Of a stretch of DNA of 25,763 nucleotides, positions 2,462-16,871 are shown one piece after another. The stretch comes from a virus (lineage: Duplodnaviria; Heunggongvirae; Uroviricota; Caudoviricetes): the IMG/VR virus record IMGVR_UViG_2778261381_000004, positions 1-25,763 of that record; one strand, given 5' to 3'. The translations under genes and the position numbers were made by a program. The notes beneath the pieces are model-generated. The model searched no databases and was not told where the DNA came from. It was given only the letters and a program-made list of their open reading frames with translations. Position 1 is the first letter of the stretch. Each line of letters opens with the position of its first letter.

Positions 2462-4168
2462 TTAATGATTGAGTATTTTATTAACACGCAGCTTATTAAG
2501 TGTTGATTTTGAAGCAACTTCCTCCAAAGCTTCTATTGCTTTATCAGTGATGCTCTTCTGTTCGTCTGTCGGGTGTTGCATACCCTTGAACTTGAGCATA
2601 GTCTCTTCTACTAAATTCAAAGCATCCTGATCACAGGATAATATCCAGTTTACGTAATCATCTTTAGAAAAACTGTTAAGAATATTCACATCACTATGGT
2701 TAAATCTTCCACCAGCTATTTTTTTTATAATTTTATCTAAGTTATAGTCATCTGGATTTCTATCTTTCAATTTTTTTTCAATTCTGAAACCTAATTCTTC
2801 ATTTCCGAAGATCTCTACTCGCAAAGAATTAAATGTAGCATACGCATTGTCTTTATTAACAAAAGCATCTGCATATGCCTCTATAATATTATTACAATCT
2901 CTATCCAATTTGATTAGGACATTTATTAAACCTACGAACTGTCCAATTGGTATACGCAACAGACTATCGTTAATTACGCGCTCAATTTGAAAAATAAACT
3001 CTGATTCATTATCTTTAAAAGAGTTTCTAAAAACATCCCAAATTTTATAAACCTCACATAAAACCCTATTATCTCTATATTGTTCATTTTTTTCTTTTAT
3101 TATATTTAGAATATTGCTTTCAGAAGACACATAACCGTTCTTAAGGTAAAAATCTATATCATCATCGAAAGCACTTTCTGCTCGTTCATAAATAATATCA
3201 AGGCTATTAACAAATGAATATACAGAGTTAACTTCTTCCTTTTCATCTTTATCATCTAACATATAGTCGAATGCATGTATATTTTTGATTGACTCCTTAA
3301 ATGAAGCATAATCAACGCTAGGAACACCAAAATAGTAAACCACTGAAAATAAGACCAATCTATTAATAAAACTTTCTCTAACCTTATCCTCTGCTAACTT
3401 TAGCACATCTCTAAATATAACTAGAGATGATTTTATTTTATTTAATATTCTAATGTTTTTGATGTTTAAATCATTTGCTAGGTTTTTTAACAAAAGAAAA
3501 TCAGGGTCAGTCTCATAAAAAACTTTTCTTAAGTTTTTCTCAGGCGTGGGATCGTATTTTATTTCCACATCAATTATTTTTTCTCTATACTCTAAAAACT
3601 GTTGTTGTGCAGTTTCTTCATGTAAGTTATCTTCATTTAATATTAGAACAACCTTGCAATTTTTTCTTCTTGCCAACTCATCAATTACCCCCATAATCTC
3701 TTTAATTTCTAGCGCACTACCTTTTCGTTCAATATCATCAATGCAAACCAAATAATTATTAACAAATTTATACTCAAGAGATGACAGCAGATTATCAGTT
3801 TTGAACCCAAAAAAATCGTTCTTTCCAAAATGTATTAAAAATTTTGACAAGGAGTTGTATTTCAACCATCCCCAAAACCCATTTCTATAACGAATCATAG
3901 TTCGATCCGTTTCAGATAAAATCAGTTCTTTATATTTCTTTTCATTAATTGGTGTGGCACAATGATAAAGAGCTTTTTTAATGTCTCCAATAGAATTTAT
4001 TCCAAACAAAGAAACATATGAATATGCATTAAAATCTAATTTTTTAGAATGTTTAGTATAAAAGCTATTCCAATAATGCGTTTTACCTACTCCCCAATTT
4101 CCTTTTATGACAGCAACCCGATGATCTGAGTCCAAAAAATTTTTTAAAAATACTTCTATCGATTCCAT
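2462..4168 (-). CDS. KAP-family P-loop NTPase, candidate accessory (moron) or defence gene
   Basis: 568 aa ORF. Walker A GNWGVGKT near the N-terminus and Walker B LVCIDDIER match the KAP NTPase signatures (G-x-W-G-x-G-K-S/T and hhhhDD-x-R). The gene is visibly far more AT-rich than its neighbours. No transmembrane segment is obvious. Confidence 0.6.
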   Translation of the reverse strand: MESIEVFLKNFLDSDHRVAVIKGNWGVGKTHYWNSFYTKHSKKLDFNAYSYVSLFGINSIGDIKKALYHCATPINEKKYKELILSETDRTMIRYRNGFWGWLKYNSLSKFLIHFGKNDFFGFKTDNLLSSLEYKFVNNYLVCIDDIERKGSALEIKEIMGVIDELARRKNCKVVLILNEDNLHEETAQQQFLEYREKIIDVEIKYDPTPEKNLRKVFYETDPDFLLLKNLANDLNIKNIRILNKIKSSLVIFRDVLKLAEDKVRESFINRLVLFSVVYYFGVPSVDYASFKESIKNIHAFDYMLDDKDEKEEVNSVYSFVNSLDIIYERAESAFDDDIDFYLKNGYVSSESNILNIIKEKNEQYRDNRVLCEVYKIWDVFRNSFKDNESEFIFQIERVINDSLLRIPIGQFVGLINVLIKLDRDCNNIIEAYADAFVNKDNAYATFNSLRVEIFGNEELGFRIEKKLKDRNPDDYNLDKIIKKIAGGRFNHSDVNILNSFSKDDYVNWILSCDQDALNLVEETMLKFKGMQHPTDEQKSITDKAIEALEEVASKSTLNKLRVNKILNH

Positions 4169-5490: not shown

Positions 5491-5565
5491 ATTTTTGAGT
5501 CGAAAACTCAGTTTGAACAGAGGAGATTGATGGCCTTCCTACATCACGGCCATCAGGAGGAATAC

Positions 5566-5835
5566 ATGTCAGCACTAAAAAAGCAGCGCATCGATTTGAG
5601 ATTAACCGATGACGATAAAAGCATCATCGAGGAAGCTGCCGCAATGTCTAACCAGAGCATTACTCAGTTTATGGTTAGCAGTGCATCTGAACGTGCCGTG
5701 AAAGTTATAGAGCAACACCGTAGACTAGTTCTGAATGAAGAATCCTGGAATCTGGTTATGGACGCTATAAGCAATCCTCCGGCACCGAACGACAAGCTGA
5801 AACGAGCTGCTGATCGTCTGAAAAGCATGGAGTAG
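5566..5835 (+). CDS. DUF1778 (TacA/AtaR-like) antitoxin
   Basis: 89 aa from the ATG at 5566, which has a GGAGG 5 nt upstream; the longer ORF from 5527 lacks a well-placed RBS. Sequence RIDLRLTDDDKSIIEEAAA...FMV...RLVLNEESWNLVMDAISNPPAPN resembles antitoxins that pair with GNAT toxins. Confidence 0.8.
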   Translation: MSALKKQRIDLRLTDDDKSIIEEAAAMSNQSITQFMVSSASERAVKVIEQHRRLVLNEESWNLVMDAISNPPAPNDKLKRAADRLKSME

Positions 5836-5842
5836 TTTACTC

Positions 5843-6364
5843 GTGAGCAATACAACGATAGAGATTTTCTCTGGAGAGAAAGATTATGATCTAAACGGTT
5901 TTGATTGCGGCGAAGAGTCACTAAACGCCTTTTTAGCCAACCACTTAAAAAGGCAGCATGAGGGAAAAATTCTTCGTGCTTATGTGCTTTGCACTCAAGA
6001 AGAAAGGCCAAAAGTGTTAGGATATTACACTTTGTCAGGTAGTTGTTTTGAAAAGGAGTCCTTACCTTCAAGAAGCAAACAAAAGAAGGTTCCTTATCGG
6101 AATGTTCCAAGTGTTACTTTGGGTAGGCTGGCTTTGGACAAGTCCCTTCAAGGTCAAGGATTTGGCTCAATGCTTGTAACACATGCAATGCGCGTTGTGT
6201 ACAATGCATCTCTTGCTGTAGGCATTCATGGACTTTTCGTTGAGGCGTTAAATGACAAAGCCAAGGCGTTTTATAAAAGTTTAGGCTTTATCCAGCTGGT
6301 TGGTAACAACGAGCGTTCTTTGTTCTATCCTACAAAATCTATCGAAAAATTGTTCGAAGAATAA
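5843..6364 (+). CDS. GNAT-family acetyltransferase toxin (TacT/AtaT-like)
   Basis: 173 aa with a GTG start 8 nt after the antitoxin stop. FDCGEESLNAFL and TLGRLALDKSLQGQGFGSMLV match the conserved motifs of tRNA-acetylating GNAT toxins. Confidence 0.8.
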   Translation: MSNTTIEIFSGEKDYDLNGFDCGEESLNAFLANHLKRQHEGKILRAYVLCTQEERPKVLGYYTLSGSCFEKESLPSRSKQKKVPYRNVPSVTLGRLALDKSLQGQGFGSMLVTHAMRVVYNASLAVGIHGLFVEALNDKAKAFYKSLGFIQLVGNNERSLFYPTKSIEKLFEE

Positions 6365-6396: not shown

Positions 6397-6612
6397 TCAC
6401 CAACCACAAACCCTCTCTCCCATCGTATTGTGAAAAAGGATTTGGCGTTCGGTTTCTTCAGTCATTACATCATTATTGCTGATATAGATAGGCTCAGCCC
6501 CATCGCAGAACAACACGCTGGCTGTTTGTGGTTTAATGACGCACCCACTTATCATACAACTCACGATGAACGGCAGAAGCATCTTTCTGACGTATTTTAC
6601 TGCTCGTCTCAT
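6397..6612 (-). CDS. Candidate o-spanin (outer-membrane lipoprotein, Rz1-like)
   Basis: 71 aa. N-terminus MRRAVKYVRKMLLPFIVSCMISGC has a basic n-region, a hydrophobic core and an ISGC lipobox. The gene starts inside the 3' end of the upstream i-spanin-like ORF in a different frame. Confidence 0.4.
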   Translation of the reverse strand: MRRAVKYVRKMLLPFIVSCMISGCVIKPQTASVLFCDGAEPIYISNNDVMTEETERQILFHNTMGERVCGW

Positions 6613-6784
6613 TCACCACTTTCACTGTGTTTTGAAGTCGTTTTCTGTCTTCCTGTTTTGCCTTCTCTTCCATTGCTCGTCGCGCCGCATTCCCGCCCAT
6701 CGTGTAAGCGCCGACAAGAACGAAAAGAACGGCAGCCAGCGTAATCAAAGCAACTTTTAGCTTTGTCATCAGGCTGCCTAGCAT
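6533..6784 (-). CDS. Candidate i-spanin (Rz-like, N-terminal TM plus charged helical region)
   Basis: 83 aa. N-terminal hydrophobic segment LKVALITLAAVLFVLVGAY followed by a Lys/Glu/Arg-rich helical region. Start is 1 nt after the endolysin stop. Confidence 0.45.
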   Translation of the reverse strand: MLGSLMTKLKVALITLAAVLFVLVGAYTMGGNAARRAMEEKAKQEDRKRLQNTVKVVNETSSKIRQKDASAVHRELYDKWVRH

Positions 6785-6785
6785 A

Positions 6786-7505
6786 TTAGACCATCCCTTT
6801 CTGGTGTTTTCTTACCTGCGACCAGGCAATGAATCCTGCCACAACAATAGTGGCAATACCGAAGATGATGCGTACTGTATCCCCGCTAGAGATATGACCT
6901 TGTGCTTTATCCATAGCAGCGGAAACCTGCGGCATAACATCGGCCAGCTGCGCCAGACCAATACCTGCTGTAACAGTTGCGCCTGCGGTTTCTTTAGTTA
7001 CAGGAACAGCCTTCACGGTTTTCACCGGCTTAACAACGCCAGCTCGACGCAGACCTTCCTCAATAACTTCTGCCGCATACCAGGTGTTCAGCGTTTTTAG
7101 CGGGCCTCGGCCATTCTCGTGGCGAATGATTGCCTCAACCAAAGGTCGAAGGATGTCGTAATCATGCAGATCGATGATCATGTCTGCGGTTACACCAACG
7201 GCTTTAGACACCTCATTAATGTAGGCGTCAGTATTGTTTTCATTCGGCGGTGCCCAGCGTTCAATAACTTCACGAATGGTATCGATACTTGTGCCGTCTT
7301 TTGCGCGACGTTTATCGTGGTAGGTAATTAGAGTCACCGCCAGCGCACGAATCCCCCAAACAGGGTCTTTAAACGTGCAAAAGCGCGGTTCGTCTGGATT
7401 CGCAACCAGACCTTGCCACGGTGATCCTTTATCAAGATTACCGGGGTTATTATTACGAATGCCTCTCGGAGTCTTCATCCTTGATCTCCTGTTATTGCAG
7501 TCCAT
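6786..7505 (-). CDS. Putative endolysin / cell-wall hydrolase with a C-terminal transmembrane segment
   Basis: 239 aa. N-terminal motif GIRNNNPGNL...WQG, which I recall from phage muralytic proteins but cannot place in a family. C-terminal hydrophobic stretch RIIFGIATIVVAGFIAWSQV. Call rests largely on position between holin-like and spanin-like genes. Confidence 0.45.
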   Translation of the reverse strand: MDCNNRRSRMKTPRGIRNNNPGNLDKGSPWQGLVANPDEPRFCTFKDPVWGIRALAVTLITYHDKRRAKDGTSIDTIREVIERWAPPNENNTDAYINEVSKAVGVTADMIIDLHDYDILRPLVEAIIRHENGRGPLKTLNTWYAAEVIEEGLRRAGVVKPVKTVKAVPVTKETAGATVTAGIGLAQLADVMPQVSAAMDKAQGHISSGDTVRIIFGIATIVVAGFIAWSQVRKHQKGMV

Positions 7506-7815
7506 TTTTTACGCCATACGCGGCTAACCCCAAAAGCAGTGCAGTAATAATGAACGACGTTATTTTAGAAACAATGCCGCCAAAGAACCCACTGGAGATG
7601 GAATCTAACCGGTTAAGGAGCTTGTCCAGGTTGGAGTGTTGAATACTATGTTGCGCCGGGGTCATATCACCAAAGTAGGTTTTCAGCTGATCATTGACCT
7701 CCTGGCCAATTTCTTCACGTAGCTCTTTGCCTAATTTGCCAACAACCTCCCGAGCAACGATCGCGGCAATACGCTCAACTTGCTCTGTTGTAACGCCCGC
7801 CATCTCGTTCGACAT
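7492..7815 (-). CDS. Small membrane protein, possible holin
   Basis: 107 aa with a single C-terminal TM (ITSFIITALLLGLAAYGV). Overlaps the start of the endolysin candidate. The topology is atypical for classical holins. Confidence 0.3.
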   Translation of the reverse strand: MSNEMAGVTTEQVERIAAIVAREVVGKLGKELREEIGQEVNDQLKTYFGDMTPAQHSIQHSNLDKLLNRLDSISSGFFGGIVSKITSFIITALLLGLAAYGVKNGLQ

Positions 7816-7874
7816 GTTTTCCTCCGTGAAAAGTCAAATCGGGATGGCGGATTTATATCACACTTCTCCTTTTA

Positions 7875-7894
7875 ATTGTAGGTATATACTTACC
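7875..7894 (-). promoter_or_regulatory. Recurrent intergenic motif, site B (minus-strand reading GGTAAGTATATACCTACAAT)
   Basis: Seen in sequence. 18 of 20 positions identical to site E. About 60 nt upstream of the holin-like start. The 3' TACAAT could serve as a -10 element. Confidence 0.4.
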
Positions 7895-8018
7895 TACCTA
7901 TACATATACCGTTTAACGGTTGTTCATATTCGCATCTAGTAACTCACTAATATATCCCTATGATTGCGGCTGTGAAATCGCATTTTTAAACCACACAGCC
8001 ATATAAATAATGTCTAAA

Positions 8019-11000
8019 TCAGTTACTTGTTGCCCCAACAGTACCTGCAAATTTCAGCCATTGACCTGACGGACTTCTATTACTACGGTAGTGATAAACG
8101 AGGATTGCGTTTGTAATCCCACCATAGTCAGCTTTGTGTGACGTCGTTAAACGAATTGTATAATCACCGTTAGGTAGATTAAAAACTTCGATTATAGATT
8201 CTGCTAATTCTACAGCACCAAATCCCGTTATATTGTTGATACTGCCAGCATTGAATCCCATAGCATCGCCAAAGCCAATCCAATAACTTTTGCTAAACGC
8301 CCCATTTGATTTTAGGTGGCTAATGAATGCGGACAAGCTCATGCCCATATCCCCACCTGAAACAGAGGAAGTTCGCACAGTCATACTTGGAAGAGCACTG
8401 CTCTTCACATAGGAACTTAGAAGGTTTGTTACCTCTGTTTTCGTGTAAGCATTAAGGTTAGCCGCAGTCAAAGTTATATCGGCAGAGCCATCAAACGCCA
8501 CACCAGCAATTTTCCTTGCTGTCTGCAATTTTGTGGCGGTTGCGGCATTACCAGTAGTGTTCTGGTTCCCATCTGCATTCACACCTGGAATGCTGTCTTT
8601 TTTAGTATATATCTGAGTCCAGTCCTCTTCGAACCCATAGCCATCACGTGATGAACGGTAATACAATCCACCATTTTTATAATGCGCTCGGATTTGGAGA
8701 GTCCGACAACTACCTACGCCTATATAAAAATTTGCAACGATATAAGAATCCCCGGAGCGTGTAACATTATACGCACCTGATTCGGCATTCCACGGGACCG
8801 CACCACTAGCATCGGCATAAGTTCCAGTAGCGCGTCGAGCAAAAGCAGATACATTTGCAGCTGTTAGTGTTATATCAGCAGAACCATCAAAAGACACGCC
8901 GCTTATTTTTCTAGCAGTTTGCAACTTCGTAGCTGTTGAAGCATTACCGTTCAAACTACCATTTACGCCACCAGTAACATTTAGTCCATTACCAATGGAC
9001 ACAGCACCGCTGGTATTATTAATTGTAATAGGTCGCAAACCGTTCCATGAACCTAATGTGTCTCCTGATGCTGTTAGCATGAAATATGTGTTCGATCCAT
9101 CATTACGGATAAAGAACCCAAAGCTACCGTAAGCAATGCGGAAACCATTTGCATATTTTGAAACGATCTCACCAGAAGACGTTAATCCGCCAGTTAACGC
9201 TCCTCCAGATAGTGGTAAAGCTCCGACATCAGCCGCAGTAGGCTTGTTTTTAGTGTTATACGCTCTGCGCCATCCTGGTGAATAGCTCGTCCCGTTAAAT
9301 ACATAGATAAACTCCGCATTAGTGAGAGCACCAGAGACACTCGCCGTTGTGGCCGTTGTTATACGGATCGTATAATTGTTTGAGCTACTACCGTTATTAA
9401 ATACCTCTATAACAGCTCCTGCTAATGGAATAACGCCACAACCAGTTTCACTATTTGGTATGGTTGCACTATTGGCATAGGCCCACGCACATCGAGCAAT
9501 CCATGACTTTGTGTTAAATGCTCCATTATTTTGCAATAACGTCACTAACTGTGCTGTTGTTATTGCTCCGCCATTACTTCCTGTAGTTAACCAACCAGTA
9601 GGAGATGCCGGGCAACCTATATTTGCTGGCGACAAGGAAATATTTGCCGAGCCGTCAAACGACACCCCATTGATAGTACGCGCAGTCTGCAACTTCGTAG
9701 CAGTAGCCGCGTTGCCCGTTGTATTCTGATTACCAGTCGTATTAACACCTGGCAAATTAATATTCGCAGTACCATCAAAGCTCACGCCGCCGATAGTTCT
9801 TGCCGTCTGAAGTTTTGTAGCAGTTGCAGCATTACCAGTGGTGTTCTGATTACCCGTAGTGTTTACACCTGGAAGGTTAATATTTGCAGAACCGTCGAAA
9901 ACAACTCCACCGATAGATCTTGCCGTCTGCAATTTCGTGGCTGTACTTGCATTACCATTCAATGAACCAGTTAATCCACCTGTAACAGACAACGGACCTG
10001 AAACTGTTCCTCCGGTTGTTGGCAGTGCTCCAATATCTGATGGTGTAGGTTTCTGATGTGAGCTATACATCGTATAAACAACACCATCGGTAACGCTGGA
10101 AGGCTTACTCGCTGAATATGTTGGCGAGGTATAAATAGAAACTGTCGCATTTGCAGTACAATCCCAATGGATATTTACACGAGTCGCATAATTGCCAATC
10201 TCAACGTAAATATCATATGTATCGCCGGATGTGTTGATCCAGGCGAAATTCGTTAATCCGACAGCTGTACGCTTCCACAAAGCACCTGTAATCCCTTTGG
10301 GGTTTCCATTGCCTGCTCGTAGAACCAGTTCTGAAATGCCTGCCTGATGTGGGGAGCCGACGTTGTAACCAGCGCCACCAATCAATGCGATGTAAACGAT
10401 GGAACTCGCTTGTGGCATGGTAACCGTAGCCAGTTTGAACCACCCTGCCCCGCCAGAGAAAGACATCGTTACTGAATTTAAAGTACCAATATCTTTCGGC
10501 GTTAATGTGATATCCGCAGTCAGTGCTTTACCGTTAACTTTTCGGTTAGATGGCACCCTGCTATTCGCATTGTCATTGGCTGCTTTAACTGCTTTTGGCG
10601 TTGCGGCCAGCGATTCACTGGTGCTGTCGACAGCACTGCTAAGTTTCACAACACCTTTAGTTGTAAGGCTTGCGTCTTCCATCGCAACTGCACCGGCAAT
10701 CTCTTCAGCACGATCAGCAGCAGCTTCCGCACGGGTCGCAGCGGATTCAGCAGCAGTTTTGCTCTGAGATGCTGCCGTCGCACTGCCTGCCGCCTCTGTT
10801 GCTTTCGTGGATGCCGTCGTGGCACTGCCCTTCGCTGCTGACGCCTGTCTGGTCGCCTCATCTTTTGAAGCAGACGCAGATGATGCCGATGACGCCGCCG
10901 AACTGGCGGACGATGCGGCAGCCGTTTTTGAGGATTCTGCGCTGGTTTCCGACGCTTTCGCGTTCGTTTCGGATGTCTTCGCTGCGGAAGCAGACCTCGC

Positions 11001-12044
11001 TGCTGCGCTAGCCTGTTCAGTGGCTTCGCCAGCCTTCGTTGTGGCTGTTGAAGCAGACGATGCGGCACTTTCTGCCGATTTTCCGGCGGCGGTGGCACTG
11101 GCTGAGGCCTGCCCGGCACTTGTTGACGCGGCACTGGCAGACGACGCAGCCGCTGTTTTTGAGCCTGCCGCAGCTGAGGCACTCTGTGCTGCTGCCGTCT
11201 CAGAAGACTTAGCGTTCGTCTCGGACGTTTTTGCCGCCTTCGCGGAATTGCCTGCCGCTGTTGCCGAGGAGGCTGCACTACTGGCGCTCAAGGATGCGTT
11301 CGTTTCTGATGATTTCGCTGCCTCTTTTGAGGCCGCCGCATCCCGGGCTGAGGTGGCAGCTTCTGACGCTTTCGTGGTCGCGGTGGATGCAGAAGTGGCT
11401 GCTGATTGTTGTGACGCTGCGGCATTCGTTTCAGATTTTTTCGCAGCAGTTGCACTCGCACTTGCGGCACTTTGTGAGGATGCCGCAGCGGATGCACTTT
11501 GAGACGCTTGAGAGGCTTTTTCTCCAGCGGTATTGGCGCTTTCTGCTGCTGCGGCAGCACTGGCCGCTGCCTCACGAGCTTTGTCGCCAGCAGCATCAAT
11601 CGCGTCAGTGTTATTTTTATACCACTCAACGTTTTCGTTGTGCTCGTTGACGATCTGCATTAGCGGCTTAACGGTTACTTCTGTACCGTCTTCACGCTCG
11701 ATTGTCACCTCATCCAGAGCAGTCAACCAACTGCGCATAGACTTGGAATCAGCCGACATACGCGACATTAGTGCTGTAAAGCGCGCGCTAAACTGTGTTA
11801 AGTCGCCTTCATAGGTCGTAATGATTCGGCACGGAACCTCAGACTGAGTTTCGCCGGTATAAGGTTCTGAGAGAACAATATTCGTATCGCTTATTACGCG
11901 CTTGATCTCATACAGCTTATTGTCGGGGCCAATGACGATCATCCCCGGCAACACACCATTAGCTGTTACGTTCCAGGCTGTCCCTGCCCCAACCAGAGTA
12001 TTGCTACCCTGTGTAAATGTGATAGTACCTTCCCTGTACCACAT
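8019..12044 (-). CDS. Side tail fibre protein
   Basis: 1341 aa. Conserved tail-fibre-like N-terminus, then a ~300 aa Ala/Ser/Thr-rich tract with repeated KxSETNA units, then at least five copies of a GN(A/Q)xTATKLQTAR-I-GV-FDGSA-I-L repeat. Confidence 0.85.
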   Translation of the reverse strand: MWYREGTITFTQGSNTLVGAGTAWNVTANGVLPGMIVIGPDNKLYEIKRVISDTNIVLSEPYTGETQSEVPCRIITTYEGDLTQFSARFTALMSRMSADSKSMRSWLTALDEVTIEREDGTEVTVKPLMQIVNEHNENVEWYKNNTDAIDAAGDKAREAAASAAAAAESANTAGEKASQASQSASAAASSQSAASASATAAKKSETNAAASQQSAATSASTATTKASEAATSARDAAASKEAAKSSETNASLSASSAASSATAAGNSAKAAKTSETNAKSSETAAAQSASAAAGSKTAAASSASAASTSAGQASASATAAGKSAESAASSASTATTKAGEATEQASAAARSASAAKTSETNAKASETSAESSKTAAASSASSAASSASSASASKDEATRQASAAKGSATTASTKATEAAGSATAASQSKTAAESAATRAEAAADRAEEIAGAVAMEDASLTTKGVVKLSSAVDSTSESLAATPKAVKAANDNANSRVPSNRKVNGKALTADITLTPKDIGTLNSVTMSFSGGAGWFKLATVTMPQASSIVYIALIGGAGYNVGSPHQAGISELVLRAGNGNPKGITGALWKRTAVGLTNFAWINTSGDTYDIYVEIGNYATRVNIHWDCTANATVSIYTSPTYSASKPSSVTDGVVYTMYSSHQKPTPSDIGALPTTGGTVSGPLSVTGGLTGSLNGNASTATKLQTARSIGGVVFDGSANINLPGVNTTGNQNTTGNAATATKLQTARTIGGVSFDGTANINLPGVNTTGNQNTTGNAATATKLQTARTINGVSFDGSANISLSPANIGCPASPTGWLTTGSNGGAITTAQLVTLLQNNGAFNTKSWIARCAWAYANSATIPNSETGCGVIPLAGAVIEVFNNGSSSNNYTIRITTATTASVSGALTNAEFIYVFNGTSYSPGWRRAYNTKNKPTAADVGALPLSGGALTGGLTSSGEIVSKYANGFRIAYGSFGFFIRNDGSNTYFMLTASGDTLGSWNGLRPITINNTSGAVSIGNGLNVTGGVNGSLNGNASTATKLQTARKISGVSFDGSADITLTAANVSAFARRATGTYADASGAVPWNAESGAYNVTRSGDSYIVANFYIGVGSCRTLQIRAHYKNGGLYYRSSRDGYGFEEDWTQIYTKKDSIPGVNADGNQNTTGNAATATKLQTARKIAGVAFDGSADITLTAANLNAYTKTEVTNLLSSYVKSSALPSMTVRTSSVSGGDMGMSLSAFISHLKSNGAFSKSYWIGFGDAMGFNAGSINNITGFGAVELAESIIEVFNLPNGDYTIRLTTSHKADYGGITNAILVYHYRSNRSPSGQWLKFAGTVGATSN
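8460..9960 (-). repeat. Tail-fibre repeat copies within the fibre gene
   Basis: The protein unit NASTATKLQTAR...FDGSANINLPGVNTTGNQNTTG recurs with near-identical DNA (for example ...gcagcattaccagtggtgttctgattacc...) around 8500-8600, 8880-8960 and 9640-9960. Coordinates approximate. Confidence 0.6.
10700..11600 (-). repeat. Low-complexity Ala/Ser-rich coding tract of the tail fibre
   Basis: Corresponds to roughly residues 150-445 of the fibre protein. It generates several long spurious ORFs on the opposite strand and in other frames. Confidence 0.6.
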
Positions 12045-12060
12045 GTTGAATATGCTCCTT

Positions 12061-12086
12061 GATTTGGCGGGTTATCCTTGCCCGCC
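12061..12086 (-). promoter_or_regulatory. 5' leader stem-loop upstream of the tail fibre gene
   Basis: Seen in sequence: GGCGGG / CCCGCC inverted repeat with a 9-nt loop, lying between motif site C and the AAGGAG RBS of the fibre gene. Confidence 0.35.
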
Positions 12087-12104
12087 ATTAAGTAAATACT
12101 TACC
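12087..12104 (-). promoter_or_regulatory. Recurrent intergenic motif, site C (minus-strand reading GGTAAGTATTTACTTAAT)
   Basis: Seen in sequence. Shares GGTAAGTAT and TACTTA with sites B and E. About 45 nt upstream of the fibre start. Confidence 0.4.
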
Positions 12105-12137
12105 TATTTTTACCGATATAAAATTTTTTTTCCACCA

Positions 12138-15100
12138 TCACAGACGGCCAATTCTTACTCGTAGGACGTTGTTATCGTCATAAACGTCAATCCGCTGACC
12201 ATTTATAACCAATCTCCCATTGCCGCCGCTATTACCGTTGATCTCAAGCGTTCCATTTTTGCCGAACCGCCATCCAGATCTACCGCTAACAAAATTGGTA
12301 GATTGCAGATCGCCTACTTTTGCATTGGTGATTGTGCCATCCTTGATATACGCTCCATTCATATAGGCGATACTGTTTTCGATAACAAATGGCGTTGTGA
12401 TCTTCCCGTTAACAGAGTTGACCAAACCAAACCTGTCCGCCTGAACCAAAAACTGAGATAGCCCAGTGGTGTCAATACCAAGCGCAATACCGGCAACATA
12501 CTTCTGCCCTCCGCTCGTTGAAGTCTCCATTTTCAACGTCCACGCGGTTGATACTTTTTTGTTGGTATCAGCAATAGCTGTTGCCTGCTGTTGAATTGTC
12601 GCGGTATTTCCATCCACCTCTGCTTTCAGAGTATCGATTCGCCCACTCAGAGCATTATCTGCCTGCGTTCTCGCTGTCGTTTCAGTTGTGACCGCCGCAG
12701 AAATGTTGGCTGCTGTTTGAGACTCTAAGTTTGTGATTTGAGTCGCCAATGCAGCATCTTGCTCTGTACGCGTTTTCGTTTCGGTTGCTACAGCCGCTTT
12801 AATATCCTCTTTGTATTGAGAGGTCAGCTTGGTGATCTGAGACGACAACGCCGAGTCAGCATCAGTTCGAGCCTGCGTTTCAACTGCAACGGCCGCACTA
12901 ATATCTTTCGCTGTCTGTGCTTTTAAACTTGAAACCTCTTTTGTTAAAGCGGTATCACCATCTGCACGAGCCGTTGTTTCTCTGGCAAGAGACGCCTCGA
13001 GATCATTAGCTTTTGCTGTAAGAGACGTAATCTGGGTAGACAATGCACTATCGGCATCAGTCCTTGCTTTTGTCTCTACAGCAACCGCTGCGGCAATATC
13101 AGTTCCGGTTTGTGCTCGCAGGCTGTTAATTTCTCGTGAGAGCGCCTGGTCAGCACTTGCTCTGGCCTCCTGCTCCTGAGTGATGGCCGCGGATATATCA
13201 CCGTCAACCTTTGACTGAAGCTGGTTTATTTGTTTGGCTAACGCAGAGTCCCCGCTTGCTCGGGCCTCCTGCTCACTACGTATTGCAGCAGAAATATCAT
13301 CATCAACCTTTGCCTGAAGTTGGGTGATCTGGCTTGCCAGAGCCGAATCTTCCGTTGCTCGGGCTTCTTGCTCTTCCTTAATGGCTGCGACGATATCGTT
13401 GCTTACTTTCGACTCAAGCTGAGTGATCTGTGTCGTCAGAGCTTCATCGGCAGATGTACGAGCCTCCTGCTCTGTACTAATCGCCGCGCTGATATCTCCT
13501 TCAAACTTAGATTGCAGCTGAGTGACACGCTTTGCCAACGCTTCATCGCCATCGGCACGAGCGGTGGACTCTTCCAGAATACTGGCCTTAATGTCTTCGC
13601 CAATTTCTACGCGAATTTCCTCAACCTTCGTGGCCATTGCAGACATATCATCAGCAAAGGTTTTCTGTGTTGTTGCGATCTTCGCGTTATTGACCATCTG
13701 CTTGTGCTGGTCTTCATCTTGACGAAGAGCCAGGTCAATATTTGTTTTGGCTAACGCCTCAATGTTCGTAGTCAGTTCTGCACTGGCACGATCGACCTCT
13801 GCAACCGTCTTTTTCATTTCTTCAACGGCAGCGGAGCTTTCCTCTACCGTTGACTGCAACACTTCCAGTTGTTTAGCGTTTGCAGCATCGCCTTCAACAC
13901 GAGCCTCGCTTTCCTTAGCAATAAGAGCCGCCGCTTCATCTCTTGCAGCCTTTATTGCCTCGACTGTATTAGCGAGAGCTTTATCGTGTTCAGATACGGT
14001 GTTTTCGATTTCAACAATTGCAGCATCAGTAGCATCAATTTTTTCAAACGCTTCATTGACCTTGTCGATCGTTGCCGAAACCTCACCTTTAAGCTCGGTT
14101 TGTGCGTTCTCCAAAGCATCGCTACGCTCGTTGAATTTTATTTCAAAATCCGCGAGGTTATCGCTGAACTGCTTATCTAATTCAGCTATATCTTCCTTAA
14201 CGTCGTTTACCGCCCCCTCCAAAGATTCGACGCTCTGGTTGATATGCTCATTTAACTCGTCAACTGCTTCTTGAGAGGCTTTGCTGTTGATGTCCTCAAG
14301 CAGAGCCTGACCAAGCTCGGAAGATGTAATTTTGCCAGTCAGGAACGACAGTACATCGCGAGTTGTCGCCTCTGTACCCAAGTTTGAGTTCGGAGGACTT
14401 AACATACCTCGCTTGTTCGATGCTCGAACCCAGTAATACCACGTTTCGCTATCCCCAAGACCAGCATGTGTAAAGGTGGTGCTTGCAGACTCTGCGATCA
14501 GTTTCGCCGTATCCAGATTGTTGGTCTGGGATGCGTAAACATTAATGTGATCAAGGTCTACCGAATCTGGATTAACCCAATTCAGTATCACATTACGATA
14601 GTCTCCAACGGCCGTTAATGACGTTGGGGCATCCGGCGGTGTCATTGTGCCCAACACCTGATAAACGGTACTGATAATCTCTGTTTTTTTACCGTTGAAT
14701 GAAACCGCATACAGCTGGAAGTCGTAGCGTCCATTCTCCGCGACATTAACGATTTCGTATTGCTCTTCGGTTACACGCGCCGATTGCCAGTTCGATACAT
14801 TGTTTTCATCAGAACGTCGCCAACTGATCCAATACTCTGGAGATTTCCCTTCCCATGTTGCAGTCAGTTTTACTGACAGGTTGCCCGGGCTTGAGAGATA
14901 AGTCCCTTCAGTGATTTGCAGATTAGATGGCTTGGAGTAAGTTGGGTCCAATACCGTCGTATTCTGCGGGATCAGCGTTGCACCATTGTCGATTGCCTCA
15001 TATTTAGACGGATTGTTCTCAACAGCGGTGATGTCAAAGCTACCCGGCGTTTCCCCCTGCGCGATGTTAACGATGCGAACGCGCATAGGTTCGAGGTCTG

Positions 15101-16871
15101 GTTCTGTAATAGTCCAGACGCCGTTCAAAACAGGCGTTTCAGCCGAAGACAGGGCTTTTGAAAACGTAACTTTTGTTATATTTTCGCCAGTTTCAAGAAC
15201 ATCGCGTTCAACGATTTTGCCTTCCTGATTCAGTATTCGAATAAAGCAGCCGCCTTTGGCTAACGACACAGGCGCATCGAGTGTGACGCTGTTTTTGGTA
15301 AACGCCACAATTCGACCTGAGTTACGTTTGCCTGCGCGATATTTGTTCTGAATCAGAACGGTTTCACCAGGCATCAGAAATGACGCGTCTAAGCCGGCAG
15401 TAAATGTAATTACATCCGACTCCATTCTGGCGGTATATAAAAGCCACAAACCAACTCGGTGAGCCTGCCCTCGGCTTGTACAGCCAAATGCTACGACTTC
15501 TGTTTTACGCTCACCATAACGGCGCATTGCGTCCTGATCTTCGACGTACTCGATGTTTTGCTTATAACCGTCCTCCTTGTTGTTGTAGGTTACGAGCGCA
15601 ACGGATGGGCGATCTTTACGCGCAGAACCTTTATAGGTAAACAATCCATCTTTGACGTTAGAGTTGGTAAACATCATTACCGGATCTGATGGGCTATCCT
15701 GCATGATGTTAACCATCCCACCAGCCCAAAACACCATGCCGCGGAATGCTCCGGCAATATCCTGAATTAGCCGGTATGCGTCCTGTCGACTGGTGATCTG
15801 CGTATTGATTGCAAAGCGTTTCTCTTTGCCACCAAAGCCATCATCGACCTCTTCGTCACAATATCGACCAATCTGGTACAACTGGCCAAGGTCAATCATA
15901 GATTCCGACACATACTGACCAAGGCCATATCGAGCATTGGTCAGCAAATCAAAGAGAATCCACGCGGGGTTCGAAGAAGACAACAGCTTAAAAGTGCCAT
16001 CCCATACCCCAGCGTAAGTGTTACTGGACTCGTTATAGTTTGAAGGTACTCGAATTTTTAGGCCACGCACCAGATAAGAGCGAGATGGCATGGTGCTGCC
16101 GAATTGCTCAGAGTTTACCTTCAATCCAACCAAAACAGAGTTTGGATAGTTCATCGGTGTATCGACAATTTCCCCGATTGAATCCACCCATGTATCGTTA
16201 TAGAGATACTGGCTACTGTTATCATCGGTAATACGGACCACACGAACCTTGTATGCTCGTCCAGGCTTAGGCAGCTTCAGCTCATAGCTACGGTAATAAA
16301 CGCCGGTCTTCTTTGCTGTTAGCTTAATGCCAACGCTTTTTTCACCTTCAGCGACCACATCTACAAATGTTGAGTCGCCATTTGCTATCTGGAACTTGTA
16401 CTCAACAGTCGTACCGTTCGTGTCACCAGTTTTTTTATCTATGCTTCGCAAAGAAGGAAACTTCATGATGACACGAACCCGATCAGCTTCATCGTTATCG
16501 ATTGAAACCGTTACATAATGTGTTTTTTTTAACTGGATATTGACGGATTTAGGCGTTTCAACGAAATCAAAGCCAGACATTGGAGTCTGGTCTTGTGAAC
16601 CGTCGCGAAAATCCCATGTGATTCCGCTGAAGTTGGAGGAACCGTCTTCATTTACAATCGGCAGATCGTCGATAAAAATAGATCTTGCGCCATTTACTAA
16701 GCCGCCAATTACCCCTTCCCCAAGAAGATCGAGGATAGCGGCCATTGCACGAGAATTTACGGTATCGTCGGCTTCAACCGGTGTACGGCTGGAGCTTTTG
16801 CTGCTTTTTTTACCACCCGCACCGGCAATAAACAGCGGTAGCTTTTTCTTCTTGAACTGTTCCATGTTCAA
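12138..16871 (-). CDS. J: Host-specificity / central tail fibre protein, lambda J-like, with a long coiled-coil insertion
   Basis: 1577 aa. Blocks such as NYPNSVLVGLKVNSEQFGS...LVRGLKIRVPSNYNESSNTYAGVWDGTFK, AFGCTSRGQAHRVGLWLL and QKYVAGIALGID...SQFLV match lambda gpJ as I recall it. A ~570 aa block of ~33-aa tandem repeats lies between conserved J segments. Confidence 0.9.
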   Translation of the reverse strand: MNMEQFKKKKLPLFIAGAGGKKSSKSSSRTPVEADDTVNSRAMAAILDLLGEGVIGGLVNGARSIFIDDLPIVNEDGSSNFSGITWDFRDGSQDQTPMSGFDFVETPKSVNIQLKKTHYVTVSIDNDEADRVRVIMKFPSLRSIDKKTGDTNGTTVEYKFQIANGDSTFVDVVAEGEKSVGIKLTAKKTGVYYRSYELKLPKPGRAYKVRVVRITDDNSSQYLYNDTWVDSIGEIVDTPMNYPNSVLVGLKVNSEQFGSTMPSRSYLVRGLKIRVPSNYNESSNTYAGVWDGTFKLLSSSNPAWILFDLLTNARYGLGQYVSESMIDLGQLYQIGRYCDEEVDDGFGGKEKRFAINTQITSRQDAYRLIQDIAGAFRGMVFWAGGMVNIMQDSPSDPVMMFTNSNVKDGLFTYKGSARKDRPSVALVTYNNKEDGYKQNIEYVEDQDAMRRYGERKTEVVAFGCTSRGQAHRVGLWLLYTARMESDVITFTAGLDASFLMPGETVLIQNKYRAGKRNSGRIVAFTKNSVTLDAPVSLAKGGCFIRILNQEGKIVERDVLETGENITKVTFSKALSSAETPVLNGVWTITEPDLEPMRVRIVNIAQGETPGSFDITAVENNPSKYEAIDNGATLIPQNTTVLDPTYSKPSNLQITEGTYLSSPGNLSVKLTATWEGKSPEYWISWRRSDENNVSNWQSARVTEEQYEIVNVAENGRYDFQLYAVSFNGKKTEIISTVYQVLGTMTPPDAPTSLTAVGDYRNVILNWVNPDSVDLDHINVYASQTNNLDTAKLIAESASTTFTHAGLGDSETWYYWVRASNKRGMLSPPNSNLGTEATTRDVLSFLTGKITSSELGQALLEDINSKASQEAVDELNEHINQSVESLEGAVNDVKEDIAELDKQFSDNLADFEIKFNERSDALENAQTELKGEVSATIDKVNEAFEKIDATDAAIVEIENTVSEHDKALANTVEAIKAARDEAAALIAKESEARVEGDAANAKQLEVLQSTVEESSAAVEEMKKTVAEVDRASAELTTNIEALAKTNIDLALRQDEDQHKQMVNNAKIATTQKTFADDMSAMATKVEEIRVEIGEDIKASILEESTARADGDEALAKRVTQLQSKFEGDISAAISTEQEARTSADEALTTQITQLESKVSNDIVAAIKEEQEARATEDSALASQITQLQAKVDDDISAAIRSEQEARASGDSALAKQINQLQSKVDGDISAAITQEQEARASADQALSREINSLRAQTGTDIAAAVAVETKARTDADSALSTQITSLTAKANDLEASLARETTARADGDTALTKEVSSLKAQTAKDISAAVAVETQARTDADSALSSQITKLTSQYKEDIKAAVATETKTRTEQDAALATQITNLESQTAANISAAVTTETTARTQADNALSGRIDTLKAEVDGNTATIQQQATAIADTNKKVSTAWTLKMETSTSGGQKYVAGIALGIDTTGLSQFLVQADRFGLVNSVNGKITTPFVIENSIAYMNGAYIKDGTITNAKVGDLQSTNFVSGRSGWRFGKNGTLEINGNSGGNGRLVINGQRIDVYDDNNVLRVRIGRL
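12640..14300 (-). repeat. Tandem coiled-coil repeats (~99 nt / 33 aa period) within the J-like gene
   Basis: Protein repeats of the form DISAAI..EQEARA..DSALA.QI.QLQSKV, about 12 or more copies, also visible as periodic DNA similarity. Coordinates approximate. Confidence 0.6.

Follow-up and report, generated by a model that had tools for sequence, protein, structure and literature searches.

The side tail fibre gene considered here lies on a stretch of DNA of 25,763 nucleotides (IMG/VR virus record IMGVR_UViG_2778261381_000004; the whole stretch is called the window below) that belongs to an SSU5-like E. coli phage-plasmid. Its closest described counterparts include the Mu S'/U' and P1 Sv'/U' systems (PDB entries 8JU3 and 5YVQ), which share with the window fibre a TTKGVVKL motif, a knob domain (A), a further domain (B) and a Gp34_trimer domain; the PDB sequence matches of the fibre reach E = 4.7e-55 for 8JU3 and E = 2.8e-36 for 5YVQ. 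In Mu and P1 the knob is internal and the chain runs on to a tip that is served by a U/U' chaperone encoded immediately downstream, with the fibre unit lying wholly in an invertible segment. In contrast, the window fibre has a duplicated knob whose second copy (A') is terminal, U/U' homologues are absent, and neither the gene nor the DNA just downstream of it contains inverted repeats. The lambda Stf/Tfa system has a homologous Ala/Ser-rich rod and the same side-fibre role beside a J-type central fibre, which the window likewise encodes next to its side fibre, but the window fibre has another N-terminal anchor, another distal half and no tail fibre assembly (tfa) gene. Other known arrangements also differ from this locus. 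Fibres of the T5 pb1/endosialidase type carry a C-terminal Peptidase_S74 domain that the window fibre lacks, those of the T2/S16 type (gp37 plus gp38) have an adhesin gene after the fibre that is missing from the window and from its relatives Cyrano and pTIC, and the "chaperone cap" type of Alteromonas phages V22/A5 has a downstream DUF4376 gene that is found neither in the window nor in its relatives. The Gp34_trimer domain is a likeness to T4 gp34-like fibres, but the window fibre is not a gp34 orthologue, this domain being one module only. Fibres that do without a chaperone are known, for example T7 gp17, for which a PDB sequence search gave no sequence relationship to the window fibre. Additionally, Shigella phage Sf14 has Mu/T4-like fibres (gp52/gp53) with no Mu chaperone homologues in its genome (PMC11821841); its fibres end in a T4 gp37-like tip while the window fibre ends in an A-type knob. 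The reading that we favour, if only by a little, is that the window fibre folds without a dedicated phage chaperone and that a knob of internal type has been redeployed as its terminal and presumably receptor-contacting domain.

The nearest relative of the locus is Escherichia phage Cyrano (OV696614), which is plasmid pLF82 of E. coli strain LF82 and is 97% identical in DNA over the fibre region (7400-12200). Its fibre CYRAN_21 is the same gene, with 1341 aa, the same five repeats, the same holin junction and only 33 residue differences (97.5% protein identity). The published annotation of CYRAN_21 is "tail fiber protein, S of P1 homolog" with no comment on a missing chaperone. The 3' end of the fibre and the start of the lysis cassette (window 7400-9200) are 100% identical to plasmid pTIC, and the same fibre gene is present on at least 63 PLSDB plasmids. 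Two sister phage-plasmids, SSU5 (locus L003, 4197-8515) and CMS-2020a (CP053388; locus L002, 3483-9062), have the same N-terminal anchor and rod, CMS-2020a sharing the first ~730 aa, and yet they terminate differently. In SSU5 a Gp38_N adhesin gene comes after the fibre, and then genes annotated as outer membrane protein, membrane-associated protein and Cor. The CMS-2020a fibre, of 1576 aa, contains the same module set as the window fibre in a different order, ends in Peptidase_S74 and is followed by a full Gly-rich GP38 adhesin. The tips of these sisters thus involve a gp38 adhesin or S74 plus gp38, whereas tblastn and Pfam detect neither with the window fibre. Consequently, one SSU5-like backbone carries at least three tip solutions, namely a gp38 adhesin, an S74 chaperone with gp38, and a bare knob.

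The fibre is built as a mosaic from modules that resemble lambda Stf, Mu S/S' and T4 gp34/gp37, and these are arranged from the N-terminus to the distal end as follows:

8019-12044, minus strand: side tail fibre gene, 1341 aa (open reading frame list and translation; PHROG tail-fibre families phrog_3299, 6722 and 22609)
11595-12044, minus strand: aa 1-150, SSU5-type N-terminal domain, common to the SSU5 and CMS-2020a fibres (phrog_6129/22609)
10695-11594, minus strand: aa 151-450, Ala/Ser/Thr-rich tract (Ala+Ser+Thr content, lambda Stf homology)
10539-10694, minus strand: aa 451-502, "TTKGVVKLSS…LAATPKAVK" motif, aligning with Mu S and S' aa 105-156 (5YVQ, 8JU3)
9957-10538, minus strand: aa 503-696, globular module D1 plus collar (phrog_21552; two copies in the CMS-2020a fibre)
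9639-9956, minus strand: aa 697-802, fibre repeats R1-R3 with a 40-aa period (regular expression; DNA repeat family D2)
9240-9638, minus strand: aa 803-935, internal knob domain A of Mu S'/P1 Sv' type, aligning with 8JU3 aa 186-326
8949-9239, minus strand: aa 936-1032, Gp34_trimer domain (Pfam PF21446; Mu S, 5YVQ; T4 gp34, 4UXE and 5NXF)
8871-8948, minus strand: aa 1033-1058, fibre repeat R4 (regular expression, DNA repeat family)
8553-8870, minus strand: aa 1059-1164, domain B, gp37_C-like and Mu S'-like, aligning with 8JU3 aa 324-411
8475-8552, minus strand: aa 1165-1190, fibre repeat R5 (regular expression, DNA repeat family)
8358-8474, minus strand: aa 1191-1229, linker with a predicted short helix (AlphaFold pLDDT 54-74, low confidence)
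8022-8357, minus strand: aa 1230-1341, terminal knob A', the distal end (model, 8JU3 fold match, no Pfam family)

Domain A matches 8JU3 aa 186-326 with a domain E value of 1.5e-27, the Gp34_trimer match (E = 2.7e-30) scores 105.7 bits against a cut-off of 27, and domain B matches gp37_C (PF12604; E = 1.2e-7) when it is scanned alone. The N-terminal 150 residues have no Pfam match and, judging by their position, would attach the fibre to the tail tip. Module D1 and its collar have no Pfam or PDB sequence match.

The part of the fibre that departs from described systems is its end. A', which comprises the last ~110 aa, is a paralogue of internal domain A (37% identity, E = 5e-14). Its AlphaFold2 model, built on the family alignment as a monomer and of moderate confidence (mean pLDDT 77, pTM 0.69), has an alpha+beta fold for which Foldseek finds a sole significant match in the PDB, the Mu S' tail fibre 8JU3 (E = 9e-8, TM 0.71); in BFVD the model matches internal parts of other tail fibres. 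Neither a Pfam family nor Peptidase_S74 is detected for A' in scans of the whole protein and of its last 190 aa. With the C-terminal 157 aa as query, a word-indexed protein search recovered near-identical fragments only; the wider family of 72 relatives emerged when 1.84 billion representative proteins were searched exhaustively with HMMER. The domain stands at the very C-terminus in just 6-7 clusters (at least 63% identity), while 57 of the ~65 more distant copies (23-40% identity) lie more than 100 aa from the C-terminus. The domain family is thus normally internal, and in other fibres its position in the sequence would place it inside the shaft and not at a Tfa-bound tip. In the family alignment A' retains every conserved core position and stops at the natural boundary of the family.

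We searched for a chaperone both inside the fibre and elsewhere in the element. No chaperone or peptidase domain is detected in the fibre by Pfam or by Foldseek (PDB, BFVD), the only Pfam matches being Gp34_trimer in the whole protein and gp37_C in domain B alone. Ten accessory proteins were compared by tblastn with the window, complete Cyrano and complete pTIC, and lambda Tfa, the U/U' proteins of Mu and of P1, a DUF4376 protein, the SSU5 gp38-like adhesin and CMS-2020a gp38 gave no match below E = 1. The only significant matches were homologues of SSU5_023 and SSU5_024, which we rejected as chaperones because their PHROGs are annotated as membrane proteins. These homologues are CYRAN_88/89 in Cyrano (locus L008, 34779-35677; phrog_557 and phrog_425), and the SSU5 counterparts immediately follow the fibre module, whereas ~55 kb separates these genes from the fibre in Cyrano and pTIC. 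When 52 hypothetical proteins of Cyrano were scanned with Pfam, 27 families were matched at E ≤ 0.05; Caudo_TAP, DUF4376, GP38 and Peptidase_S74 are absent among the 25 of these 27 that were listed, and the gp57A family is absent among the listed families as well. The curated annotation of Cyrano lists no tfa. The accessories of CMS-2020a and SSU5 served as positive controls, and Peptidase_S74 was recovered in the CMS-2020a fibre by the same scan. An invertible segment of the Mu/P1 kind was rejected, as there are zero inverted repeats in 7800-12100; reading of the Cyrano annotation, which was the extent of this search, shows an integrase but no Cin/Gin-type invertase.

The DNA that follows the fibre gene likewise contains no recognisable assembly gene, the next features downstream being these:

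7816-8018, no strand: spacer of 203 nt from the fibre stop codon to the holin start codon
6397-7815, minus strand: lysis cassette directly downstream of the fibre (PHROG endolysin and Rz-like spanin matches; Cyrano and SSU5 annotation)
7492-7815, minus strand: holin, 107 aa, annotated so in Cyrano and SSU5
6786-7505, minus strand: endolysin (PHROG match)
6533-6784, minus strand: Rz (PHROG Rz-like spanin match)
6397-6612, minus strand: Rz1, part of the lysis cassette

The spacer holds no open reading frame of 40 aa or more in the fibre orientation and one promoter-like site on the minus strand. By blastn it has no similarity to tfa genes, to the DUF4376-bearing locus or to the DNA that lies 3' of other A' fibres, so that a tfa remnant was rejected, and homology among A' fibre loci ends ~7 nt before the fibre stop codon. 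Readthrough or extension of the fibre frame was also rejected, as the next in-frame stop lies 10 codons past the TGA.

Fibres that terminate in A' occur in five genomic contexts, and in none of these does an intact tfa gene follow the fibre. The first is that of the SSU5-like phage-plasmids, where A' is followed after ~200 nt by the holin in 9/9 informative IMG/VR loci (a tenth contig, which stops shortly past the fibre, is not counted) and where at least 63 PLSDB plasmids cover the stretch from the fibre 3' end to the lysis genes. Among 5426 complete E. coli genomes a full-length A' match is present in 85, in most of which A' lies on a plasmid; when matches of any length are counted, plasmids hold 127 of the 139 places. 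The second context is a prophage in the Qin site that has a DUF4376 gene after A'. Experiments on Alteromonas phages have shown DUF4376 proteins to act as fibre chaperones (PMC10579305), and the Qin-site gene was considered as the missing cognate chaperone. It was rejected because it is 5'-truncated, lacking the ribosome-binding site, start codon and first ~9 codons of intact genes, and because intact copies accompany fibres whose C-terminus is quite different; we reinterpret it as a probable recombination scar. Prophages at the potB site, the third context, retain after A' just the last 30 codons of a lambda-type (Caudo_TAP) tfa. A prophage at the dusA site constitutes the fourth context, with ygiW-like, dinI-like and integrase genes after A' and no tfa. 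The fifth is a ~236-kb element in which an A' of 63-66% identity ends a fibre with a P2-H-like N-terminus. The A'-type fibre of this element is always followed by a gene for a secreted lipoprotein of 167/168 aa with a lipoprotein signal peptide (…LSLGGC…; phrog_9559; L025, 4493-4999; L044, 7964-8470; L045, 1671-2174), which has no homologue in the window or Cyrano. T5 encodes a lipoprotein, Llp, beside its receptor-binding protein gene that masks the receptor, and the lipoprotein of the ~236-kb element recalls receptor-masking lipoproteins of this kind. The DUF4376 and Caudo_TAP genes of the lambdoid prophages, which represent two unrelated tfa families, are thus truncated at the A' junction (L004, 516-1130; L043, 2438-2700; L014, 6545-6634). 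The pattern fits an A' cassette that arrives without a chaperone and needs no resident one.

Sequence variation also bears on whether A' is functional. Among eight distinct alleles of the plasmid lineage, 24 of the 31 segregating codons within the last 142 codons are synonymous, with a pooled pN/pS of 0.08, and A' of the plasmid lineage compared with chromosomal copies gives a dN/dS of 0.07. These values point to strong purifying selection on A' in a plasmid lineage that has no tfa. Additionally, the coding region of A' is open in 13/13 plasmid-lineage copies examined, and the 4-kb fibre reading frame is intact in the window and Cyrano. Cyrano, which carries the window-type fibre, yields particles that protect DNA from DNase and siphovirus virions whose size is as expected (PMC9928086). 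Two chromosomal A' fibres, located beside tfa remnants, are annotated as pseudogenes.

From the architecture and homologies of the fibre, the absence of recognisable chaperone genes and domains, the genomic contexts of A' and the purifying selection on it, we infer chaperone independence, trimer formation and receptor binding by A'. We envisage a side tail fibre, presumably trimeric like other such fibres, that recombination would have built from an SSU5 anchor, a lambda-Stf rod, three repeats, knob A, a gp34-type trimerisation domain, a repeat, domain B, another repeat and A'. A', an internal-type domain elsewhere, would here be used as the terminal and receptor-contacting module. Folding and trimerisation would then be brought about by the fibre's own trimerising modules, perhaps with general host chaperones, and would involve no phage-encoded chaperone or adhesin. 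We further suggest, more tentatively and at somewhat less than even odds, that A' is a portable self-folding tip cassette whose recombination into a fibre locus makes the resident assembly chaperone superfluous. If A' is indeed self-folding, this would account both for the truncation of DUF4376 and Caudo_TAP tfa genes at A' junctions and for the existence of a phage-plasmid lineage without a chaperone.

A number of observations weigh against these proposals. A lack of homology is not the same as a lack of a chaperone, as many Cyrano genes are of unknown function, and chaperones like T4 gp57A are tiny (~80 aa), poorly conserved and hard to detect. The structure model of A' is a monomer of moderate confidence, in which self-trimerisation would not show, and the presence of the fibre in the virion, its trimer state and its binding to a receptor are presumed. 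The pseudogene fibres beside tfa remnants could equally mean that loss of tfa led to decay, and the signal of purifying selection could come partly from diversity imported by recombination. Finally, neither a permissive host nor plaques of Cyrano have been reported (PMC9928086), and other SSU5-like phage-plasmids failed to lysogenise test strains (PMC9600943).

The alternative that survives best, although we regard it as unlikely, is that a chaperone is present but unrecognised, either as a novel small protein of the phage-plasmid or as a Tfa supplied in trans by co-resident lambdoid prophages. The former has room among the ~50 Cyrano genes of no known function, but no match was obtained in two complete relatives (tblastn; Pfam). 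The latter draws on the fact that E. coli strains with A' plasmids usually also carry lambdoid prophages with tfa, LF82 itself having four integrated prophages, and that E. coli chromosomes commonly carry DUF4376 and Caudo_TAP genes. A Tfa could in principle act in trans, as lambda Tfa can replace T4 gp38. However, Tfa proteins are specific for the C-terminal tip of the fibre, and a need of A' for either tfa family is hard to square with five contexts that have no intact tfa and with two families that are truncated. Reliance on a helper prophage would also be precarious for an element present in at least 85 diverse complete genomes.

By analogy with gp37-gp38 or gp36-gp37, A' may instead be a docking platform for a separate adhesin or distal subunit encoded elsewhere. 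We consider this improbable even though related phage-plasmids do use a separate gp38-type adhesin and homologues of SSU5_023/SSU5_024, which adjoin the fibre in SSU5, are encoded ~55 kb away from it in Cyrano. No gp38 or Gp38_N homologue was found, and these relocated homologues belong to PHROGs of "outer membrane protein" and "membrane associated protein", which suggests morons and not parts of the virion. Furthermore, the T5-like placement of a lipoprotein gene after the A' fibre of the 236-kb lineage hints, again by analogy, that A' itself contacts the receptor.

There is about the same slim chance that the fibre is a dispensable or defective relic, comparable to the frameshifted stf of laboratory lambda, with infection proceeding through the central J fibre so that loss of a chaperone is harmless. 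Lambda can do without its side fibres, infection by the phage-plasmid has yet to be demonstrated, and two chromosomal A' copies are annotated as pseudogenes. These points have to be set against an intact 4-kb reading frame, an open A' in all 13 plasmid copies with a pN/pS of 0.08, and five repeats that are near-identical as protein while their DNA has diverged to 69-74% identity.

Very improbable is an A' that acts as an intramolecular chaperone, templating trimerisation and then being removed as in T5 pb1 or the K1F endosialidase, since the general C-terminal start of fibre folding, the Peptidase_S74 end of the sister CMS-2020a fibre and the 39-aa low-confidence linker before A' are outweighed by the lack of a Peptidase_S74 match, of an S74-like fold or of any other chaperone signal (Pfam, PDB, BFVD), by the homology of A' to a permanent structural domain of the Mu S' fibre and of the fibre's own shaft, and by a family alignment in which a conserved autocleavage motif is not evident. 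A preliminary description of this DNA, made from its letters alone, had left open whether the fibre folds without a chaperone, carries an intramolecular one or relies on one encoded elsewhere; the first option is the one favoured here, the second is disfavoured and the third is unsupported in the window and in two complete close relatives. Its framing of the locus as lambda-like does not hold, as the element is an SSU5-like phage-plasmid whose nearest accessory-bearing relatives have gp38-type adhesins and not lambda-type Tfa.

In contrast to the terminal domain, which is the unusual part of the fibre, the Ala/Ser-rich tract and the repeats are ordinary and widely shared fibre modules. The same description had given the fibre gene its exact coordinates, and it was right about a ~300-aa Ala/Ser-rich tract with KxSETNA-like units, about "five or more" fibre repeats and about a holin gene, with no assembly gene, as the next gene downstream. 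In the tract (aa 151-450), Ala, Ser and Thr constitute 70-78% of each 50-aa block, and a pattern search places five K.SE.[NS]A units at aa 202, 244, 272, 356 and 363. The tract is 48.5% identical to aa 114-394 of lambda Stf (orf-401) over 309 aa, and its DNA, which is 87-92% identical to stf genes of many lambdoid phages, contains a 26-nt repeat family of four copies. Open reading frames embedded in the tract on either strand were judged to arise from repeats that are rich in GC and poor in stop codons. The fibre repeat GN[AQ].TA.KL.TAR...V.FDG[ST]A.I is present in exactly five copies (aa 697, 737, 777, 1033 and 1165), with no degenerate sixth copy matched by a looser pattern. The copies are not due to chance, because the same sites form a 78-nt DNA repeat family of 69-74% identity. 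They lie within window positions 8475-9957 (minus strand), and the low identity of their DNA implies that they are old. That their peptides are nonetheless near-identical would point to a long-standing constraint at the protein level, possibly together with selection against recombination between copies. Among relatives the copy number ranges from 1 (SSU5) to 8 (P0013). Pfam Phage_fiber_2 gave no match to the five repeats in the fibre scan but is listed in the precomputed annotation of two relatives.

Beyond the fibre, the gene order of the window is that of Cyrano: tape measure, M, L, K, I, J, fibre, holin, endolysin, Rz/Rz1, toxin-antitoxin and ParA. The J-type central fibre, of 1577 aa, is encoded at 12138-16871 (minus strand), and because a separate tail-fibre PHROG (phrog_496) matches the C-terminal ~220 aa, its distal end also appears to be modular. 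Between ParA and the lysis cassette (5527-6364, plus strand) lie a TacA-like antitoxin and a GNAT acetyltransferase toxin (KacT in Cyrano). Plasmid pTIC has aac(6')-Ib-cr at this spot, which marks the site as a cargo-exchange hotspot. A KAP-family P-loop NTPase of 568 aa (2462-4168, minus strand; Pfam E = 6.6e-6) matches the PADLOC candidate defence system PDC-S49 (E = 2e-21). Its gene sits in an island of 28-30% GC, compared with ~47% in the rest of the window, and Cyrano has a different gene of 267 aa at this position. The NTPase gene looks like horizontally acquired cargo of defence type.

Much of this fibre is already known in that the gene is the "tail fiber protein" of Cyrano, every module other than A/A' has a named family and chaperone-free fibres have precedents. 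What appears not to have been described in searchable papers or records is the terminal Mu S'-type knob, the link between this knob and tfa genes that are missing or truncated, and the occurrence of three tips on one backbone. Given those precedents, and as chaperone independence is here a deduction, we regard the significance as moderate. If the proposal is true, then A' would be a previously undescribed class of chaperone-independent tip derived from an internal shaft knob, and it would exemplify how module shuffling can remove the requirement for a chaperone. Fibre tips set host range, and dependence on a cognate chaperone hinders the fibre swaps that are used to retarget phages, tailocins and pyocins, so that a tip able to fold on its own would make a convenient scaffold for engineering. 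Resistance genes can be carried by SSU5-like phage-plasmids, which are common in E. coli, and the module with which these elements would contact their receptor therefore bears on their spread.

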